A stretch of DNA of 64,000 nt, taken from NCBI GenBank assembly GCA_024654535.1, contig JANLHL010000016.1, positions 32,626 through 96,625 on the forward strand. The letters are read 5' to 3'. Numbering within the stretch: the first letter of the stretch is position 1; every line of letters starts with the position of its first letter. Shown here piece after piece: positions 1-35,366 of this stretch. Below the pieces are notes generated by a model, which was given only the letters and a program-made list of their open reading frames with translations, had not been told where the DNA came from and searched no databases. The DNA comes from Candidatus Roizmanbacteria bacterium. GTDB taxonomy: Bacteria; Patescibacteriota; Microgenomatia; UBA1406. A program made the translations under genes and the position numbers.

Positions 1-44
1 GAAATGGAAATCAGTATTTAAGAAACCGTTACAACATACCAGTT

Positions 45-362
45 ATGCATTCGCCAAGAGTGCACGGTTACGAGCATATGTTTCAAACTGAGAATAGACA
101 GACTATCATTAAGAATGTATTTTTCCTTGCATTTCTTTTTGCTATCAATGTATTTCTATCACAATTACTATTGGTAACTAATGTTACTATTCGGTCGAGT
201 GAATTGAAAGTGACGGAACTTGAAAAAGAAAATCAGAATTTACGAGTAAAATTGTCTCATTTTGAATCGAGTGACTATATTACGACTCAGGCAAAAAAAC
301 TAGATTTTATTACTGATCCTCCGGTCGTGTATATTATGCAGAATGAGTTTGCGCAAAAATGA
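45..362 (+). CDS. ftsL: FtsL/DivIC-like cell-division protein (septum formation initiator family)
   Basis: 105 aa; one TM helix (VFFLAFLFAINVFLSQLLLV) followed by a coiled-coil segment (ELKVTELEKENQNLRVKL); ATGA overlap with downstream ftsI, the canonical dcw position. Confidence 0.6.
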   Translation: MHSPRVHGYEHMFQTENRQTIIKNVFFLAFLFAINVFLSQLLLVTNVTIRSSELKVTELEKENQNLRVKLSHFESSDYITTQAKKLDFITDPPVVYIMQNEFAQK

Positions 363-2043: not shown

Positions 2044-3270
2044 ATGAAAATATTTAAAAAAATGTACTGGTTTTTAAAAGCGCTTGCCGCAAATATCTGG
2101 TATGATTTTCCTTCAAAAAAAATTATAGTTGTTGGTGTAACAGGTACTGATGGTAAGACGACTACAACGACCATGATTTATCACATGCTGACAAGTCTGG
2201 GCGAAAAAGTGTCATATATTAGTACTGTTAAGGCAGTTGTCGCAGGAAAAACCTACGATTTAGGTTTCCACGTGACGACTCCATCTGCTTTTTTTATTCA
2301 AAAACAAATTAAACGTGCAGTTGATAATGGCGATAAATATGTTGTTTTGGAAGTGACTTCACACGGGCTTGACCAGCTACGTGTATGGGGCTGTACGTTC
2401 AAGGTAGGTGCAATAACAAATATAACGAAAGAACACTTAGACTACCATAAAAATATAAAAGAGTATGGCAACACGAAGCTTAAACTGTTGAACTCTTCGG
2501 AAATCGCTGTGGTGAATGCAGACAATCCAACCCACTATTTGTTTAGAAATTCTATAAAAAATAAGAGTCTTTGGTTTTGTTCGATTCAAAAGAAGGCAGA
2601 TTTTACGTTATCAGACCTGAAGGTGCATGGTCTAAATAGTGAAATTGACGGTTTTCAAGCTGAAAATATGGTTTTAGCGTATGCCGTTTTATGTGTTTTA
2701 GGTTTTGATGAAAAAAAGGCTGCACGCTCGCTTAATTCATTTAAGAATGTGAGGGGTAGATTAGATTATTTCGAAAAAAATAATAAGCGATTCTTAATAG
2801 ATTTTGCGCATACTCCCAATTCATTTAAACGACTTTTTGAATATGTAGAAAAGAATTATACCTATAGACACATAGTACATGTTTTTGGTTGTGCTGGAAA
2901 ACGCGACGCTATAAAGAGACCGGTAATGGGTCGTTACAGTGCACAAGAATGCAATACAATAATATTGACTGAAGAGGATTACAGAACAGAAAACATTGAA
3001 ACTATATTTAACGATATTGAAAAAGGGATTCGGAAGGAAAAGAAACATGAAAAAGGAAAGAACTATTTTTGTATTCCCGATAGGCTAGAGGCAATCCGTC
3101 ATGCGATACAGACAGCTACGTCGGAAGATATTATTTTGCTCACTGGAAAAGCGCATGAACAGAGTTTGGCTCGAGGTAACAAAGAATACCATTGGGATGA
3201 ATACGAAGCTGTCGATAAAGCGCTTTCAAAAAATACGCACGCTATTTCATCTGCTGGTCATGCTGTATAA
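2044..3270 (+). CDS. murE: Mur ligase, MurE-like (UDP-MurNAc-L-Ala-D-Glu:diamino acid ligase), short form lacking the usual N-terminal domain
   Basis: 408 aa; P-loop GVTGTDGKTTTT about 30 aa from the N-terminus; LTEEDYRTEN at the position of the MurE DNPR motif; follows ftsI as in dcw clusters. Confidence 0.7.
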   Translation: MKIFKKMYWFLKALAANIWYDFPSKKIIVVGVTGTDGKTTTTTMIYHMLTSLGEKVSYISTVKAVVAGKTYDLGFHVTTPSAFFIQKQIKRAVDNGDKYVVLEVTSHGLDQLRVWGCTFKVGAITNITKEHLDYHKNIKEYGNTKLKLLNSSEIAVVNADNPTHYLFRNSIKNKSLWFCSIQKKADFTLSDLKVHGLNSEIDGFQAENMVLAYAVLCVLGFDEKKAARSLNSFKNVRGRLDYFEKNNKRFLIDFAHTPNSFKRLFEYVEKNYTYRHIVHVFGCAGKRDAIKRPVMGRYSAQECNTIILTEEDYRTENIETIFNDIEKGIRKEKKHEKGKNYFCIPDRLEAIRHAIQTATSEDIILLTGKAHEQSLARGNKEYHWDEYEAVDKALSKNTHAISSAGHAV

Positions 3271-3964
3271 CCCCTCAAAAGAGATAAATTCTGAGTTGAT
3301 CAAGCCGATACATGGGGTTACTACTCGCTTTGATGGATCGTTCCAGTCACGGGAAAGCATTGTCAATTATTTATCGCATCGTATTCCAAACATTGATACA
3401 CATGCTATATTTGGAATACACCAAATCCATAGTTCTGACGTTCACGTTTTGCGCGCAACTGATAAACCAGACTATATTGACAGTCTAGATGTTGATGGAT
3501 TAATTCTAAAGAAAGGTAATGCACTCTCAAGTATATATGTTAAGGTTGCAGACTGTATTCCGCTCATTTTATGGGATGCAGAGACATTTACTTGTGCGGT
3601 GGTACATAGCGGTTGGAAGGGAACCTATGAAAATATTTCCCGTCGAACCATTGAAACAATGGTAAAGCTCGGAAGTAAACCGGCAAGCATTTATGCATTT
3701 ATTGGTCCTTATATTCATGATTGTTGCTACCAAGTAGACGACGTACGTGCACGGTTATTCAAGTCATCGTACATTCGATCAGTAGATGGTAGATTATATT
3801 TGAGTATAGGTACGGTAGTCGAAGATCAACTTATATATTTAGGCGTACCTAAAAAAAATATTGATCATTCTCCACTTTGTACGTCGTGTGATGCTCGTTT
3901 TTTTTCGTACTGGAGAGAAAATACCCACACGCATGGTACAATGGTAGCATACATAGCCGTATGA
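3260..3964 (+). CDS. pgeF: Peptidoglycan editing factor PgeF / YfiH (polyphenol-oxidase-like, DUF152)
   Basis: ATG at 3260 chosen over the 3101 ORF-track start, which lies inside murE; motifs QIHSSDV, ADCIPL, HSGWKG typical of YfiH; ATGA overlap with murC. Confidence 0.75.
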   Translation: MLYNPSKEINSELIKPIHGVTTRFDGSFQSRESIVNYLSHRIPNIDTHAIFGIHQIHSSDVHVLRATDKPDYIDSLDVDGLILKKGNALSSIYVKVADCIPLILWDAETFTCAVVHSGWKGTYENISRRTIETMVKLGSKPASIYAFIGPYIHDCCYQVDDVRARLFKSSYIRSVDGRLYLSIGTVVEDQLIYLGVPKKNIDHSPLCTSCDARFFSYWRENTHTHGTMVAYIAV

Positions 3965-31998: not shown

Positions 31999-32832
31999 AT
32001 GGAAGCTAATGACGTTAGTGTAAATCTACAGATAAAAAAGTGTATAAACTTACTTAAAATTATCTTAAAGGATGATTTGCTCGGTTTTTATTTGTATGGT
32101 TCTTTACTTTTCGGCGGACTTCAAAAATATAGCGATATAGATTTATTTGCTATTTCAAAGAGAGAAGCTACCAGGAGTGAAAAAGCACAATTAGAAAAAA
32201 CTTTACTGAATATTTCAGGAATTTACGCAGTAAGTAAAGACCAGAAACCAATCGAACTTACGGTTGTTGTTCGATCTGATATTTACCCTTGGCAATATCC
32301 GCCTAAATTTGATTTTCTCTATGGAGATTGGCTTCGTGGTGAATTTGAAGCTGGAAATATAGAACCTTGGCACTCTAAAGTTTTGCCTAATCTTGCTTTA
32401 GTAATAACCCAGCTTTTGCTTTCAAACAGAGTATTATTTGGCCCAAGTCCAAATCAACTTCTTGCGGCTGTTCCATACAAAGATTTTTTTATTGCAACTA
32501 CCTCAGAAATTGATAGCTTGATGGCAGATCTTAACAACGATACTCGCAATGTCTTATTAACACTTGCAAGGATATGGTATACAGTTGAAACAGATACAAT
32601 AGCTTCTAAGTCTACAGCTGCAGCGTGGGCAATTGATAAATTAACTGATAAATACAAGCCTCTGATGCAGAGAGCTCGAGCTATTTATTTAGGAATAGAA
32701 CAAGAGCACTGGGGCGATATGTCAACGCAGCTGCAACCGTGTGCAGATTATATTGTGAAGAAAATCAGAGAACAAACGTCGCACTTAAATACTTATGATT
32801 ATCAAAACAGAACTATCTCGTTGGCCAAATAA
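31999..32832 (+). CDS. aadA: Aminoglycoside nucleotidyltransferase, ANT(3'')/AadA family
   Basis: 277 aa; NTase motif YLYGSLLFGGLQKYSDIDLF; C-terminal NVLLTLARIWYTVETDTIASKSTAAAWA...ARAIYLG closely parallels AadA (NVVLTLSRIWYSAVTGKIAPKDVAADWA). Confidence 0.8.
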   Translation: MEANDVSVNLQIKKCINLLKIILKDDLLGFYLYGSLLFGGLQKYSDIDLFAISKREATRSEKAQLEKTLLNISGIYAVSKDQKPIELTVVVRSDIYPWQYPPKFDFLYGDWLRGEFEAGNIEPWHSKVLPNLALVITQLLLSNRVLFGPSPNQLLAAVPYKDFFIATTSEIDSLMADLNNDTRNVLLTLARIWYTVETDTIASKSTAAAWAIDKLTDKYKPLMQRARAIYLGIEQEHWGDMSTQLQPCADYIVKKIREQTSHLNTYDYQNRTISLAK

Positions 32833-32952
32833 AAATGTAAATGCTTTGGGGGTGGGTTAGCGAACGATGTTCGGACCTATTACAGCAATTTATCGCTAAA
32901 AGAAATTGAGTTTTATAGAAAAGCCTATTTAACTATTTGATATGCTTAGAGC

Positions 32953-33774
32953 ATGAAGAAATTAACAGATTATCCAGAATTAGACAAAGTATTTTATGAA
33001 TTGGCTTATGCCTATAAAATGGCACTCGGTGAAAATTTTGTAGGACTCTATATACAAGGTTCACTTGCAGTTGGAGATTTTGATATGACAAGCGATGTAG
33101 ATTTTACCGTGATAATAAATCACGATTTAACAGAAGAAGAAGTAAGAAAAGTTCAGGAAGTGCATACCAAATTTATAAATAGGGATATCAGATGGGTAAA
33201 GCATCTAGAATATTCATTCTTTCCATTACCAAAATTTAAGATACATTCTTCCCGCTTTGAAAATGGCAAAGAAAATAACACAGAGGAACGAAAGCTTTGG
33301 TACTTTGATAATGGGCATAAAGAAATTGAAAGAAATGATCATGATAATACTTTAGTAGTTCGCTGGGAAGTTAGAGAAAAGGGAATTACTGTTCTAGGTC
33401 CTGATCCTAAAACTTTAATAGACCCAGTAACACCAGACGATTTGCGAAAAGAGATAAAAGAATTTCATGAAGTATGGACTCCTGGTTTCTTGGCTAATCC
33501 TGATGAATGGGAGAACAGATTTTACCAAGTCTTCTTCGTTTTGCATTTTTGTAGAGCTTTACAAGATTTAGAAGAGGGAAAAATCACTTCAAAAAAGGAA
33601 GCCATGGAATGGGGTAAGAAAAACCTTGATTCCAAATGGCATGATCTTATAGATTATTCATGGAACGAACGAAAAGATGAAAATATCTCTAACAAACAGC
33701 CAGCAAATCATGAAAGATGGTTAGAAACACTCGAATTTGTAAAATATGCTTTAGAAAAAATAAAAGAACAATAG
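32953..33774 (+). CDS. Second nucleotidyltransferase-domain protein (ANT-like, NTase plus helical C-domain)
   Basis: 273 aa; NTase motif IQGSLAVGDFDMTSDVDFTVI; helical C-terminal domain; substrate unknown. Confidence 0.6.
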   Translation: MKKLTDYPELDKVFYELAYAYKMALGENFVGLYIQGSLAVGDFDMTSDVDFTVIINHDLTEEEVRKVQEVHTKFINRDIRWVKHLEYSFFPLPKFKIHSSRFENGKENNTEERKLWYFDNGHKEIERNDHDNTLVVRWEVREKGITVLGPDPKTLIDPVTPDDLRKEIKEFHEVWTPGFLANPDEWENRFYQVFFVLHFCRALQDLEEGKITSKKEAMEWGKKNLDSKWHDLIDYSWNERKDENISNKQPANHERWLETLEFVKYALEKIKEQ

Positions 33775-33834: not shown

Positions 33835-33912
33835 TGGGGTGGCTGACCGGACTTGAACCGGCAACCTCCTGCTTCACAGGCAGGCGCTCTAACCAATTGA
33901 GCTACAGCCACC
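33835..33912 (-). tRNA. tRNA-His (anticodon GTG) with encoded G-1 and encoded CCA
   Basis: Minus strand G-GTGGCTG-TA-GCTC...; anticodon loop CT-GTG-AA; T-loop GGTTCAAGTCC; C73 opposite the extra 5' G; CCA present. Confidence 0.9.
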
Positions 33913-33916
33913 AATA
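33888..33916. repeat. Direct repeat R1 (29 nt), copy 1, within tRNA-His
   Basis: TCTAACCAATTGAGCTACAGCCACCAATA identical to 34191-34219. Confidence 0.9.
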
Positions 33917-34158
33917 GAATCTGCAATCTGTTTTCTTATTAACTCTCTGCCCTTTCCTGACTTTAAAAACTTCTCTCTTTTTCTAGCGTCTTTCTCACTT
34001 AAATATGCCTCATAGTATATCAATTTTAAAGGCAATCTGCTTTTAGTTGATTCATTTAAGCCGTTGTTATGAGCTTCAATTCTTCTTTTCAGATTTTTAC
34101 TAAAACCAGTATATTGTTTGTTATCCCTTTGTGACAATAATATGTAAACGTAAAACAT
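33889..34158 (-). CDS. Stand-alone GIY-YIG nuclease (YhbQ/UPF0213-like)
   Basis: 89 aa from ATG 34158 (MFYVYILLS...YTGFS...RRIEAHN); the last 8 codons plus the TAG stop are encoded by the 5' half of tRNA-His. Confidence 0.75.
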   Translation of the reverse strand: MFYVYILLSQRDNKQYTGFSKNLKRRIEAHNNGLNESTKSRLPLKLIYYEAYLSEKDARKREKFLKSGKGRELIRKQIADSIGGCSSIG

Positions 34159-34161
34159 TGT

Positions 34162-34215
34162 CTCCTGCTTCACAGCCCGCCTCAGGCGGGTCTAACCAAT
34201 TGAGCTACAGCCACC
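34162..34215 (-). pseudogene. Degenerate duplicate of the tRNA-His 5' half (G-1 to anticodon arm) with a GC hairpin replacing 8 nt
   Basis: 29-nt and 14-nt blocks identical to the intact gene; GCGCCTGC replaced by CCCGCCTGAGGCGGG; no T-arm or 3' acceptor. Confidence 0.65.
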
Positions 34216-34219
34216 AATA
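34191..34219. repeat. Direct repeat R1 (29 nt), copy 2
   Basis: Identical to 33888-33916; a second 14-nt block CTCCTGCTTCACAG repeats at 33866-33879 and 34162-34175. Confidence 0.9.
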
Positions 34220-34288
34220 ACAGTATATTTTACCATGAACCTTTTCGTTACGCTTGTTCGGAAATGTGTCTGCTATAATATCTGTAGT

Positions 34289-34363: not shown

Positions 34364-35056
34364 CTATCTCATTTGTATGTCGAATTCGGTATCTGGCGGC
34401 TGAATTGAAACAAGTGCGTTTGTTACCTCATCTATAGCAGGGTAAAACCCATGACCGTATATATCACCACTCTTAGGACCAAATATATGAGAATAAGTAT
34501 CTTCTTTACTCGGTATAAAGATAGCCCATGACGCCTGGTCACGTAATTCATCATTTTTTCCAAGTACCATGGATGCGGTATTAAATAATCTACCAAATGG
34601 ATAATTTGCTAAAAGAAAATAGTCACTTGATCTGGCATAAACATAACCGATTCTTCCATCTCCATGTGTATTACTTCTAGCTCTCGCACCATTTTGTTCA
34701 AGTACTCCTATACCATACACGGTTGGAATAGTTTTAACTTTATACATAGAACTTACTGGGTTTTCTGGGAATGATATACTATCGCCATCAGCATATCCAA
34801 GATTTTCTGCTATATCCATTCCAATTCCTAGTGCTAACGCCGCTTTTGCTGCTGCATCAATATACGCATACATATGAGGGAAATTTAATTTCTTAATTTG
34901 CCTATATGCATCTGCAACTAATGTTGGTTTATCATGGGTAAATAGTAAATCAGGACTAAATGCTATGTTACTCTCACCCGATGGCACTCCAGAAGGATCT
35001 GGTCCATTCATGTATCTTGATCGTAGATAATTTTCAACATCATCAATTATAGTCAT
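34364..35056 (-). CDS. Hypothetical protein
   Basis: 230-aa ORF between tRNA-Arg and tRNA-Lys; no motif recognised. Confidence 0.45.
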   Translation of the reverse strand: MTIIDDVENYLRSRYMNGPDPSGVPSGESNIAFSPDLLFTHDKPTLVADAYRQIKKLNFPHMYAYIDAAAKAALALGIGMDIAENLGYADGDSISFPENPVSSMYKVKTIPTVYGIGVLEQNGARARSNTHGDGRIGYVYARSSDYFLLANYPFGRLFNTASMVLGKNDELRDQASWAIFIPSKEDTYSHIFGPKSGDIYGHGFYPAIDEVTNALVSIQPPDTEFDIQMR

Positions 35057-35199: not shown

Positions 35200-35225
35200 C
35201 CACTATTGCAAGAATGCAATAGTGG
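35200..35225 (+). other. Perfect 11-bp hairpin immediately 3' of tRNA-Lys
   Basis: CCACTATTGCA-AGAA-TGCAATAGTGG; no U-tract, so a processing or terminator role is uncertain. Confidence 0.4.
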
Positions 35226-35366
35226 AATGTCCAATATCAAATATCCAATATCCAAACTTCGCTAATTCTTTGGTGAGAGAGCCACTACCCGGCTTACGTT
35301 ATATTGTTTGCATACGGCAATTTGTCCTGTTTGTTTCTTATCTGAATTTTATCTATAATGGAGTGC

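Follow-up and report, generated by a model that had tools for sequence, protein, structure and literature searches.

Here, we describe a small GIY-YIG nuclease gene that lies nested in the transcription unit of a tRNA-His gene in a metagenome-assembled genome of a Candidatus Roizmanbacteria bacterium. The locus reads best as a tRNA-nesting nuclease cassette similar to the mORFs of fungal mitochondria, which would have entered by target duplication, would be read from the tRNA promoter and would by now be fixed. We give this reading a probability of roughly 0.5. The window, i.e., the whole stretch of DNA analysed, comprises 64,000 nt, and all coordinates refer to it. In the order of the minus strand, an extended -10 element, a partial tRNA-His copy (R1), a palindrome, a second partial copy (R2), an ORF of 89 aa and an intact tRNA-His follow one another:

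34220..34288, no strand assigned: spacer from the divergent tRNA-Arg(TCT) to the pseudo-tRNA; fully conserved, holds the promoter(s)
34227..34235, minus strand: extended -10 promoter-like element TGGTAAAAT, read directly and taken as the putative native tRNA-His promoter
34191..34219, minus strand: R1, comprising the tRNA-His leader (TATT), G-1, the acceptor 5' strand and the D-arm to canonical position 23
34176..34190, no strand assigned: perfect palindrome CCCGCCT-N-AGGCGGG with a CTNAG centre, 15 nt, in place of tRNA positions 24-31
34162..34175, minus strand: R2, comprising the anticodon loop, the anticodon-stem 3' strand and the start of the variable loop (positions 32-45)
33889..34158, minus strand: 89-aa stand-alone GIY-YIG nuclease ORF (UPF0213/Slx1-like), Pfam PF01541
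33835..33912, minus strand: intact tRNA-His(GTG) with G-1 and CCA encoded (ARAGORN, Rfam RF00005)

Apart from the spacer, all of these elements had been read from the letters in an earlier note, and each was recovered at its position. R1 agrees with the intact tRNA-His at its 5' end (33916-33888) in 29 out of 29 nucleotides, including four nucleotides of the leader (blastn within the window, E = 1.6e-11), and R2 agrees with positions 32-45 in 14 out of 14. Between them, CCCGCCTGAGGCGGG stands for the displaced eight nucleotides GCGCCTGC of canonical positions 24-31. The downstream tRNA-His(GTG) is complete according to both ARAGORN (33835-33911) and Rfam RF00005 (33838-33911, 74 bits), with the encoded G-1 at 33912; R1 received no score from the Rfam tRNA model at E <= 1. 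A group I intron or a split tRNA was rejected, as Rfam at E <= 1 gives two tRNAs only, a ribozyme would not fit into the space available and the downstream tRNA lacks no part. From R2 to the ATG of the ORF there are just 3 nt, and at the other end codons 82-89 (IGGCSSIG) together with the TAG stop are tRNA-His sequence inside the intact gene, as had been proposed. The AGGAG within R2, which the earlier note had read as a Shine-Dalgarno sequence borrowed from the tRNA, probably serves as such in this genome, but the feature is not conserved, the related contig L001 having AGGTAACAC instead. The insert amounts to approximately 380 bp with the GIY-YIG ORF as its only gene, and the repeated part of the tRNA-His is the 5' half, not the 3' end. 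Since the same arrangement is present on seven independent contigs (the window, L001-L005 and L086, from ENA, Logan and JGI assemblies), it is not an assembly artefact. Samples with these contigs are ERZ27293362, ERZ27293392, ERZ27293395, SRR5487654, SRR6241618 and Ga0210050.

The sole promoter-like element of the unit is located 5' of the partial tRNA-His copy. It was not picked up by a two-hexamer consensus scan. A near-identical motif (CATGRTAAAATATA) occurs ahead of the tRNA-His units in two other Microgenomates loci, L090 and L093, where the extended -10 element 5' of the unit reads TGGTAAAATATACT and CATGATAAAATATAGC, respectively. The upstream half thus looks like the native 5' end of the gene, and the insert like the ORF plus a fresh tRNA-His 5' part.

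The assignment of the ORF as a GIY-YIG nuclease gene holds with a Pfam PF01541 match of E = 2.8e-16 (60 bits against a cut-off of 22.6). The catalytic residues Y5, Y16, G18, R26, H30 and E62 are invariant across 28 homologues, and the alignment of these homologues shows no invariant Asn after E62. The AlphaFold2 model (pLDDT 88.9) predicts strands at residues 2-9, 15-20 and 44-52 and helices at 23-31, 55-66 and 68-83; residues 86-89 of the tRNA-encoded tail lie below pLDDT 50. Motifs, catalytic residues and the beta-beta-alpha-beta-alpha core place the protein in the GIY-YIG superfamily. A profile search of the PDB retrieved 1zg2 (E = 7.9e-11) and 1ywl (E = 8.5e-9), and Foldseek ranked 1zg2 at the top, followed by Slx1 chains (e.g., 7cq3 with an rmsd of 1.5 A over 71 columns); I-TevI and UvrC ranked below these. 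The Slx1 lineage is recognised by the C-terminal Asn of the UvrC/HEase lineage not being conserved (PMC1564403). With its minimal domain, the proximity to 1zg2 and 1ywl and the absent Asn, the protein falls into the UPF0213/Slx1 lineage as a minimal, stand-alone GIY-YIG domain. The term 'homing-type' used in the earlier note had to be given up in its I-TevI/Seg sense: the 89-aa protein consists of a single domain (residues 1-83), lacks the C-terminal DNA-binding domain of these enzymes of about 200-250 aa, and has its nearest relatives in UPF0213 and Slx1. With an estimated dN/dS of approximately 0.05 against L001, the ORF is under strong purifying selection. To our knowledge, no GIY-YIG enzyme of the Slx1/UPF0213 lineage is known to mobilise DNA. 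An integrase island or prophage in the tRNA gene was rejected on the basis of the missing recombinase, the small insert, the repeat of the 5' half, the missing matches in PHROG and PADLOC, and relatives at only two loci in 2.9 million viral contigs.

The design recurs far beyond the window. A tRNA gene lies within 150 nt on the same strand in 40 of 84 homologous ORFs and on the opposite strand in one, at a tRNA background of 1 per 12.4 kb, and the co-oriented tRNAs are of many isotypes. At least 15 ORFs carry a partial copy of the adjoining tRNA on their far side; direct repeats of at least 11 nt flank 30 of 86 ORFs versus 3 of 86 after shuffling. The tRNA-His architecture is shared by the diverged lineages L006, L007, L008, L011, L089 and L093 (59-70% ORF identity), and the His-associated ORFs form one clade across host lineages, in which the pseudo-copy is 97.6% identical to its own tRNA and 79% to the tRNA-His of other loci. 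ORFs that are 80-90% identical to each other adjoin tRNAs for Lys, Arg and Glu. A mirror form, with the intact tRNA followed by the ORF and a palindrome-bearing 3' pseudo-copy, is found at tRNAs for Lys (L026, L091), Met (L024) and Phe (L049), and L093, L086 and L081 contain stacked or tandem insertions in which the second ORF has decayed. At L023, the design is located at the 3' end of the gene for a 969-aa protein and shows a 105-nt duplication without a palindrome. Because the design recurs at many tRNAs and at the 3' end of a protein gene, we favour insertion with target duplication, and in this respect the invasion of the tRNA-His gene suggested earlier is supported. In the 84-aa clade, which makes up about half of the wider family, no tRNA was found nearby. 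The palindrome-bearing pseudo-copy of L090 lies beyond the tRNA and does not adjoin the ORF; in L090 as well as in L007, a palindrome-bearing tRNA copy stands in tandem with the tRNA, away from the ORF. The placement in L090 is not predicted by simple insertion models.

The hairpin between R1 and R2 had been taken as incidental. We find instead that it is the most conserved and diagnostic feature of the element lineage. In the His and Lys loci of one clade, the stretch lost to a GC-rich palindrome is exactly tRNA positions 24-31; in this clade, 9 of 13 loci have the palindrome there. Within 160 nt of the ORFs, palindromes show an enrichment of about 10-fold relative to the remainder of the loci, and 42 of 44 of these have CTNAG or GANTC centres, compared with 10 of 51 elsewhere. 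Palindrome type tracks the ORF clade and the sequence is conserved within ORF clades; the palindrome belongs to the element lineage. In some cases (L045, L021 and CACC...GGTG arms after tRNAs) the palindromes are made from the tRNA's own end sequence. Near-identical contigs agree in the arms and differ in the centre base, which is G, C or T. The stems are built from Watson-Crick pairs, with almost no G:T pairs (depleted versus control stems), and covariation occurs on both sides only. Such Watson-Crick-only stems with flipping loop centres are typical of DNA palindromes, not of RNA helices. Folding z-scores for RNA structure of the leader were not significant. The palindrome is probably a DNA-level cis site. 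Within the window it is unique (one exact copy in 64 kb), and a dispersed repeat of the REP or MITE type was rejected there on this ground; odd GC-rich palindromes in the window show no excess (3 observed, shuffled mean 1.2).

All seven related contigs are occupied with an identical arrangement, and the cassette is fixed in two species-level relatives. The upstream half shows 2 differences in about 200 nt among relatives, and the 77-nt spacer that holds the extended -10 element is 100% identical, without a single difference, to L001, L003 and L086; in the adjoining ORF, 17% of the nucleotides differ. Neighbouring genes have synonymous divergences of 0.3-0.7 (transporter pS 0.315, second neighbour pS 0.73), a background range that includes the ORF (pS 0.64). 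A recent swap of the ORF between conserved flanks was ruled out, as the second neighbour is more diverged than the ORF. Pseudo-copy and spacer stand out by a conservation far above that of neutral sites, which would also fit a host function.

An empty or excised site would lead from the promoter straight into the intact tRNA (...TGGTAAAATATACTGTTATTGGTGGCTGTAGCTCAAYTGGTTAGAGCGCC), and a circle or tandem would have the ORF 3' end run onto the palindrome (...GATTCTATTGG...TTAGACCCGCC). The comparison with relatives proposed in the earlier note yielded no empty site, all close relatives being alike, and no presence/absence polymorphism was observed at the window locus (seven contigs, a small sampling) or, among the matches listed, at any other locus. 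A pattern search for the intact tRNA-His in metagenome contigs returned one locus among the matches listed, which is occupied. Synteny via the neighbouring 230-aa protein gave no relatives, as the protein is an orphan; among the transporter homologues, synteny is gone at 65% identity, and the one at 94% is located on a contig that is too short. In the syntenic Omnitrophota trio L017, L070 and L076, three out of three are occupied. Since the relatives are all occupied and the upstream half has hardly drifted, the refuting condition named in the earlier note speaks against a recent invasion at this locus. In the best reading of these sequence comparisons, the cassette at the window locus is old and fixed, and its nuclease is kept by purifying selection.

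For the cassette, we propose the following sequence of events. Its anatomy, the recurrence across the family, the conservation and the fold are shown by the data; transcription, nuclease activity, mobility and what the palindrome does are inferred. The upstream remnant would be the disabled 5' part of the native tRNA-His (positions -5 to 23 and 32 to 45), and the 5' part of the complete downstream tRNA-His would have been brought by the insertion or regenerated through it. The downstream copy is complete, and therefore the tRNA should stay functional. Expression of the ORF would rely on read-through from the tRNA promoter across the pseudo-tRNA leader, with RNase P and RNase Z presumably freeing the tRNA-His from the 3' end of the shared transcript. 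The cassette might spread through copying induced by a break, for which the pseudo-tRNA would supply a homology arm that travels with it; an excised circle that undergoes a single crossover would be an equivalent alternative. The palindrome may act as a branched or hairpin substrate, or as a recognition site, of a nuclease of the structure-specific type. As it splits the 48-nt direct repeat into pieces of 25 nt and 14 nt, it may also stand in the way of re-cleavage and of repeat recombination that would remove the cassette. Several observations speak against the cassette reading. The adjoining intact tRNA keeps the presumed target, and self-cleavage would need to be avoided; an 83-residue domain has no obvious means of target recognition, and its lineage is not known to mobilise DNA. 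The lack of an empty site in the comparisons above, the fixation and strong conservation of the locus, the displaced pseudo-copy of L090 and the many family members with no tRNA nearby count against it as well.

Several other explanations have to be weighed. The fixation in all close relatives, the low dN/dS of the ORF and the near invariance of leader, hairpin and spacer against the divergence of the neighbouring genes would be expected of a domesticated host nuclease that acts in repair or recombination at highly transcribed tRNA loci, or in RNA metabolism, and resides permanently in tRNA operons. Pseudo-tRNA and hairpin would then form a cis-acting 5' or 3' UTR element for mRNA stability, processing or translational control. 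The covarying hairpin arms, a predicted pairing of R2 with the start-codon region in three loci, and the published case of a TrmH-type tRNA methyltransferase fused with a Slx1-like domain in prokaryotes, which hints at an RNA link (PMC1564403), fit this picture as well. However, the hairpin changes its position (5' of the ORF, 3' of the ORF, or beyond the tRNA in L090), the partial tRNA copies are unable to fold as substrates of RNase P or RNase Z, and both the G:T-depleted stems with their flipping loop centres and the insignificant folding z-scores argue against an RNA element. Without insertion events, it is difficult to account for stacked insertions, decayed tandem copies and the duplicated end of a protein gene, and we consider a domesticated gene unlikely. 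If, on the other hand, GC-rich palindromes stall replication in tRNA arrays and thereby cause template switching and partial tandem tRNA duplications, the ORF could be a passenger that accumulates in unstable, highly expressed spots. Hypervariable and flipping loop centres do indicate extrusion of DNA hairpins, some palindromes derive from the tRNA's own end, and L090 and L007 carry the palindrome-bearing copy next to the tRNA rather than the ORF. Nevertheless, a rearrangement driven by palindromes alone appears very unlikely to us, given that the two core types are tied to ORFs and enriched around them, that the type follows the ORF clade, that the duplication in L023 has no palindrome, and that no second copy exists in the window.

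A classical, sequence-specific free-standing homing endonuclease, i.e., a bacterial SegB analogue, would cut ORF-less tRNA-His alleles and be copied in by double-strand-break repair, leaving the hairpin as a scar that inactivates the old target. SegB indeed recognises a conserved motif of tRNA genes and sits among many tRNA isotypes (PMC2330249, PMC13096335). The single clade of His-associated ORFs across hosts, and the replacement of the same eight nucleotides in His and Lys pseudo-copies, as expected of a cleavage or recognition region, agree with such an enzyme. It is nonetheless very unlikely in our view: the whole protein is one catalytic domain without a DNA-binding domain, its fold is nearer to Slx1/UPF0213 than to I-TevI, the group I intron endonuclease model TIGR01453 scores 21.4 bits against a cut-off of 56, and PHROG and the viral contigs offer next to no relatives. 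Moreover, the putative site is retained in the intact tRNA-His, and a palindrome that is conserved within ORF clades and has CTNAG or GANTC centres is not a random scar. Most speculative, and improbable in our view, is a targeting module in which the two tRNA-matching arms (1-23 and 32-45/76) of the pseudo-tRNA, as RNA or single-stranded DNA, anneal to a tRNA gene that shares their identity; the hairpin would be forced out opposite eight unpaired target nucleotides (24-31), and the Slx1-like mini-nuclease would cut the resulting branched junction. If true, it would explain why the arms match the resident tRNA while the hairpin matches the ORF clade, why the position of the hairpin within the tRNA is the same in either orientation, and how a protein of such small size locates tRNA genes. 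Targeting would then be guided by nucleic acid, read as a structure by an 83-residue enzyme, and retargetable by copying a new tRNA fragment.

The cassette reading finds its closest parallel in fungal mitochondria, where mORFs make 'hybrid genes' of Glomus atp6, atp9, cox2 and nad3 and of Allomyces macrogynus atp6: an endonuclease ORF (GIY-YIG in atp9) at the end of a host gene carries a duplicate of the terminal segment and so keeps the gene intact, the native remnant persists beyond the ORF, and ORF and gene are co-transcribed (PMC3630166; Allomyces as cited there). L023 and the mirror-form loci match this design exactly, and the window represents its mirror image with the 5' end duplicated. 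Remnant (-5..23, 32..45), ORF and intact tRNA make up a hybrid gene in the window, as do their counterparts in L024, L026, L049, L091 and L023. Unlike the diverged pieces of mORFs, which are foreign and polymorphic, the duplicated pieces here are identical (100% in the window, on average 97.6% in the His clade), and no ORF-less allele was seen on the seven related contigs or among the matches listed in the synteny searches. The host gene is, furthermore, a bacterial chromosomal tRNA, the enzyme a bare domain, and the remnant bears a lineage-specific palindrome at a fixed tRNA position.

SegB of phage T4 is a free-standing GIY-YIG homing endonuclease within a tRNA gene cluster, which targets conserved tRNA-gene motifs or a structural element and is associated with tRNA-linked amplification, including tandem repeats of tRNA and nuclease via microhomology at the tRNA 5' end (PMC2330249, PMC13096335). 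Our loci share with it the GIY-YIG gene among tRNA genes of many isotypes and the tandem tRNA-nuclease repeats. SegB, however, is phage-borne and of the UvrC/HEase lineage, with a DNA-binding region besides its catalytic domain, whereas the protein described here is of the Slx1/UPF0213 lineage, has no extra domains, is nearly absent from viral contigs and is without a match in PHROG; pseudo-tRNAs disrupted by palindromes are not described at SegB loci. The best matches in sequence and fold are found in the minimal domains of Slx1/UPF0213 proteins without the C-terminal Asn (YhbQ, YazA, BH0048, EF2693). Since Slx1 cuts branched DNA (PMC1564403, PMC7017083), this analogy suggests hairpin, cruciform or junction DNA as substrates. 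Earlier work took the prokaryotic Slx1-like members for candidate repair proteins with vertical inheritance (PMC1564403), and in a literature search short on subscription journals, nesting in tRNA genes, target duplications and cognate palindromes were unreported for them.

A lead only comes from R.Hpy188I, a GIY-YIG restriction enzyme that recognises TCN^GA, a 5-bp interrupted palindrome with a free central base, and cuts it in the middle (PMC2630997), which recalls the CTNAG and GANTC centres with their hypervariable middle base. That enzyme is larger; insertions give it a DNA-binding surface, and it belongs to a restriction-modification system. The mobile clusters and double-hairpin elements of fungal mitochondria are likewise short GC-rich palindromes that lie near tRNA genes and at the borders of mobile ORFs, in genomes that are AT-rich. 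These are dispersed multi-copy repeats, whereas the palindrome described here occurs once in the 64-kb window and goes with a single ORF.

As prior descriptions, the same literature search turned up no more than the mitochondrial and phage analogues, and the recurring tRNA-nested design is apparently an undescribed kind of gene-invading element. In bacteria, it would be the counterpart of mitochondrial mORFs and of SegB in phages, and the cassettes would be the smallest self-contained nuclease units known that colonise essential genes without killing them. They would account for some of the pseudo-tRNA fragments and miscalled tRNAs in MAGs, those of CPR included, and would provide a tractable system for target choice by a bare catalytic domain via DNA structure, a palindromic site or a nucleic-acid guide. 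The stand-alone Slx1-like GIY-YIG family, very large and of unknown function, would gain a concrete, testable biology from its nesting in tRNA genes; at E <= 1e-10, it comprises 5,487 clusters at 50% identity.

On the minus strand of the window, a small GIY-YIG gene is nested in the tRNA-His transcription unit behind a partial tRNA copy (pseudo-copy). We regard this cassette as a member of a widespread and apparently undescribed class of minimal GIY-YIG cassettes that nest at tRNA genes. Its elements are as follows.

34235-34227, minus strand: extended -10 TGGTAAAAT, read from the sequence
34219-34191, minus strand: R1, first piece of the pseudo-copy, with four leader nucleotides, G-1, acceptor 5' strand and D-arm to canonical position 23; 29 of 29 nt identical to the intact gene
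34190-34176: palindrome CCCGCCTGAGGCGGG, standing where the tRNA has GCGCCTGC (positions 24-31)
34175-34162, minus strand: R2, second piece of the pseudo-copy, positions 32-45; 14 of 14 nt identical to the intact tRNA-His
34158-33889, minus strand: 89-aa GIY-YIG ORF, preceded by ACA
33835-33911, minus strand: intact tRNA-His(GTG), called by ARAGORN, 74 bits in Rfam

An earlier note had proposed this layout, and sequence reading, ARAGORN and Rfam agree with its elements and coordinates in every detail. The pseudo G-1 lies 11 nt 3' of TGGTAAAAT, and the palindrome occurs only once in the 64 kb. Both G-1 (33912) and CCA of the intact tRNA are encoded, and the tRNA sequence supplies the final eight codons of the ORF as well as its TAG stop. 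Only the intact copy is recognised as a tRNA; the upstream partial copy received no tRNA score in the Rfam search, which also found no intron family at the tRNA-His locus.

Homologues of the ORF were collected from 80 loci (49-67% identity) of species-representative genomes, with an extra set from metagenome contigs; these loci carry L numbers. A same-strand tRNA lies within 150 nt of 40 of 84 ORFs and an opposite-strand tRNA near one; the background tRNA density in the same loci is 1 per 12.4 kb. The adjoining tRNAs represent at least 14 amino-acid isotypes. Direct repeats of at least 11 nt flank 30 of 86 ORFs, compared with 3 of 86 after shuffling.

Three arrangements recur. Type A, the form seen in the window, consists of a 5' pseudo-copy, the ORF and the intact tRNA, and is found at tRNA-His (L006, L007, L008, L011, L089, L093), Phe (L037), Met (L076, L081, L070), Arg (L078), Gln (L079), Trp (L029) and Pro (L045). 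Type B is its mirror image: the intact tRNA is followed after 0-3 nt by the ORF and then by a 3' pseudo-copy, as observed at Lys (L026, L091), Met (L024) and Phe (L049). In type C, one or two palindromes separate the tRNA from the ORF and often recur past it. Insertions can also be stacked, since L093 (440-1254) carries two unrelated GIY-YIG ORFs (32% identical) 5' of a single tRNA-His, each behind a partial tRNA-His copy of its own, with different hairpins at different tRNA positions. A protein gene is affected as well: in L023 (2860-3380) a GIY-YIG ORF directly follows a 969-aa gene, and the final ~105 nt of this gene reappear 3' of the ORF as a duplicate (58 + 45 nt identical), here without a palindrome. 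Target switching is seen in the type C clade, where ORFs 80-90% identical adjoin different tRNAs (Lys, Arg, Glu); ORFs co-resident in one locus are just 32-55% identical. Neighbour-joining places the His-associated ORFs in one group beside Phe and Lys loci of the same palindrome type, and a large clade comprises 84-aa proteins without a nearby tRNA.

Some individual loci deviate from these patterns. Directly 3' of the real tRNA-His of L007 lies a 93-nt tRNA-His-like gene (3334-3426), in which two GANTC-centred palindromes replace the anticodon arm and which ARAGORN miscalls as tRNA-Arg(TCG). L090 (279-720) has the promoter motif TGGTAAAATATACT directly 5' of the ORF and no 5' pseudo-copy; the ORF overlaps the intact tRNA-His, and a palindrome-bearing pseudo-copy (positions 12-23, hairpin, 32-76) is placed 3' of the tRNA. 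The tRNA-Met that follows the ORF of L017 (~3085-3260) is split in its anticodon loop by a group I intron-like sequence and was therefore missed by ARAGORN; in the syntenic L076 it is uninterrupted.

The palindrome, which the earlier note had treated as incidental, is the diagnostic feature of the cassette. Within the His/Lys/Phe clade, 9 of 13 loci have a palindrome of 15-17 nt in place of exactly the 8 nt of tRNA positions 24-31, in type A and type B alike. The pseudo-tRNA segments around it share 97.6% identity with the resident tRNA versus 79% with the tRNA-His of other loci. Over all loci, the density of odd GC-rich palindromes within 160 nt of ORFs is about 10 times that in the remaining parts of the loci, and the centres of those near ORFs are CTNAG, the window type, or GANTC in 42 of 44 cases, compared with 10 of 51 in control regions, where such palindromes are few and short and have no GIY-YIG-like reading frame within 500 nt. 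The stems show covariation, with 98.2% of cells paired, four pairs changed on both sides and none on one side only, and a covariation score of 0.439 versus 0.127 in shuffles (reached by 0 of 500). G:T pairs make up 11 of 409 near ORFs, several of them in tRNA T-arms, versus 52 of 435 in control stems, and loop centres are hypervariable or flipped. Taken together, these traits are typical of DNA palindromes and not of RNA helices. When folded as RNA, the leaders show no significant gain in stability over shuffled sequence. At 34150-34175 (minus strand), R2 (GUGAAGCA) is predicted to pair with the start-codon region (UGUUUUAC), which would occlude the AUG; the same pairing is predicted in L001 and L006, with folding z-scores that are not significant.

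The ORF product matches the Pfam GIY-YIG model with E = 2.8e-16. All 28 homologues compared retain its catalytic residues (Tyr, Tyr, Gly, Arg, His, Glu), and in their alignment a conserved Asn after the catalytic Glu is absent. The family comprises 5,487 clusters at 50% identity (E <= 1e-10). A PDB profile search returned the UPF0213 proteins BH0048 (E = 8e-11) and EF2693, followed by an Slx1 homologue. AlphaFold2 predicts one domain (residues 1-83; model pLDDT 88.9), while residues 86-89, the last four of the tRNA-encoded tail, stay below 50. In Foldseek, the best match is 1zg2, followed by Slx1 nuclease domains (rmsd 1.5-2.2 A over ~70 columns) and, behind these, I-TevI and UvrC. The model of group I intron endonucleases scores far below its cut-off, PHROG and PADLOC give no matches, and only two relatives occur among 2.9 million viral contigs. 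Following the classification of PMC1564403, the protein is a prokaryotic stand-alone Slx1-like domain and not a member of the homing-endonuclease/UvrC lineage. It has no DNA-binding domain, and the label "homing-type" given to it earlier does not hold.

The cassette at the window locus is old and fixed. Its ORF encodes a protein identical to the GIY-YIG protein of a Candidatus Roizmanbacteria MAG, and a relative with 88% protein identity is present on six more contigs (L001-L005 and L086), all with a divergent tRNA-Arg(TCT), a 77-nt spacer, a pseudo-copy with palindrome, the ORF and tRNA-His. The window and the related genome have diverged considerably: the protein of the adjacent transporter is 92% identical, with a synonymous p-distance (pS) of 0.315, and that of the gene beyond it 75%, with pS 0.73. 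In the same comparison, the GIY-YIG ORF shows 83% nucleotide identity, pS 0.64 and dN/dS ~0.05, and is a protein-coding gene under selection. tRNA-Arg, spacer and pseudo-copy together differ at just two positions in ~200 nt, one in the D-loop and one at the central base of the palindrome. This base is G, C or T among otherwise near-identical contigs; the arms are constant. In L086, another pseudo-copy with palindrome separates ORF and tRNA and is followed by a decayed remnant of an ORF 3' end; the locus thus represents a tandem pair whose second ORF was deleted. An empty site, i.e., tRNA-His without the cassette, was not found among related contigs or in synteny searches, and the recent invasion implied earlier is not sustained.

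Expression of the ORF/tRNA unit is something we infer only from sequence. Motifs nearly identical to the extended -10 of the window precede the tRNA-His units of L090 and L093, and other TGnTATAAT-type elements lie 5' of the pseudo-copies in L007 and L008. No terminator-like site was found between promoter and tRNA-His in the window, and ORF and tRNA overlap, so the tRNA must be transcribed by read-through of the ORF, unless an internal promoter-like site drives it. Such a site lies within the ORF (34108-34137, minus strand; TTGTCA, 18 nt, TATACT; 10 of 12 matches) and could support tRNA-His transcription without the upstream promoter; the region is AT-rich and has 6 promoter-like sites versus 1.5 expected. 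RNase P cleavage at G-1 would strip the last codons and the stop from the ORF. In L006, L008 and L089 the ORF has its own stop before the tRNA, and the overlap is therefore not essential. The AGGAG Shine-Dalgarno sequence, which the tRNA copy supplies, is not conserved in the related genome.

Types A and B and the case of L023 are most simply explained by an inserted ORF cassette that duplicated the neighbouring end of its target gene, which would leave one intact copy alive. This could proceed through break-induced copying, in which the pseudo-copy would supply a portable homology arm, or by a single crossover of a circle that carries the ORF and a target fragment. The arrangement is the same as in fungal mitochondrial mobile ORFs that carry the replacement end of the invaded gene (PMC3630166). 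The palindrome divides a direct repeat of 48 nt into stretches of 25 and 14 nt and would thereby hinder cassette loss by repeat recombination. Nesting and regeneration of the 5' half, as interpreted earlier, are supported; the homing character, the recency and the neglect of the palindrome are not. As the main rival, a host-level or RNA-level role of the conserved cassette is left room by the strong conservation of spacer, pseudo-copy and ORF at the window locus.

A GIY-YIG enzyme with generic affinity for tRNA genes has a precedent in phage T4 SegB, which recognises the T-psi-C motif of these genes, is found with many isotypes and gives rise to tandem tRNA+segB repeats (PMC2330249, PMC13096335). 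In contrast to SegB, the enzyme described here comes from another GIY-YIG lineage and lacks a DNA-binding domain. Because of this lack, the Slx1-like fold and the cognate palindrome with a free central base, recognition of the target or cis-site may be structural (hairpin, cruciform, junction) or via a short interrupted palindrome. For the latter, R.Hpy188I, which cuts TCN^GA (PMC2630997), provides a GIY-YIG precedent.

Just past tRNA-His, the plus strand carries a tandem pair of AadA-like nucleotidyltransferase genes at 31999-33774 (277 and 273 aa); in the related genome their slot holds other genes (PIG-L, NAGPA), and synteny thus breaks at the tRNA cluster. Between tRNA-Lys(CTT) and tRNA-Arg(TCT), the window has a 230-aa orphan ORF (34364-35056, minus strand) whose sole database match is itself. 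The same slot in L001 (3123-3785) holds an unrelated 220-aa ORF, with flanking tRNAs and spacer 90-100% identical; this interval between tRNA genes appears to accept exchangeable cassettes. Directly 3' of tRNA-Lys (~35201-35226) lies a hairpin, CCACTATTGCA-TTCT-TGCAATAGTGG, whose L001 counterpart has the loop AGAA, the reverse complement of TTCT. Such a loop flip is typical of DNA-level hairpin inversion. Beside this hairpin, window and L001 differ by a 7-nt indel in a TTGGATA-like repeat.
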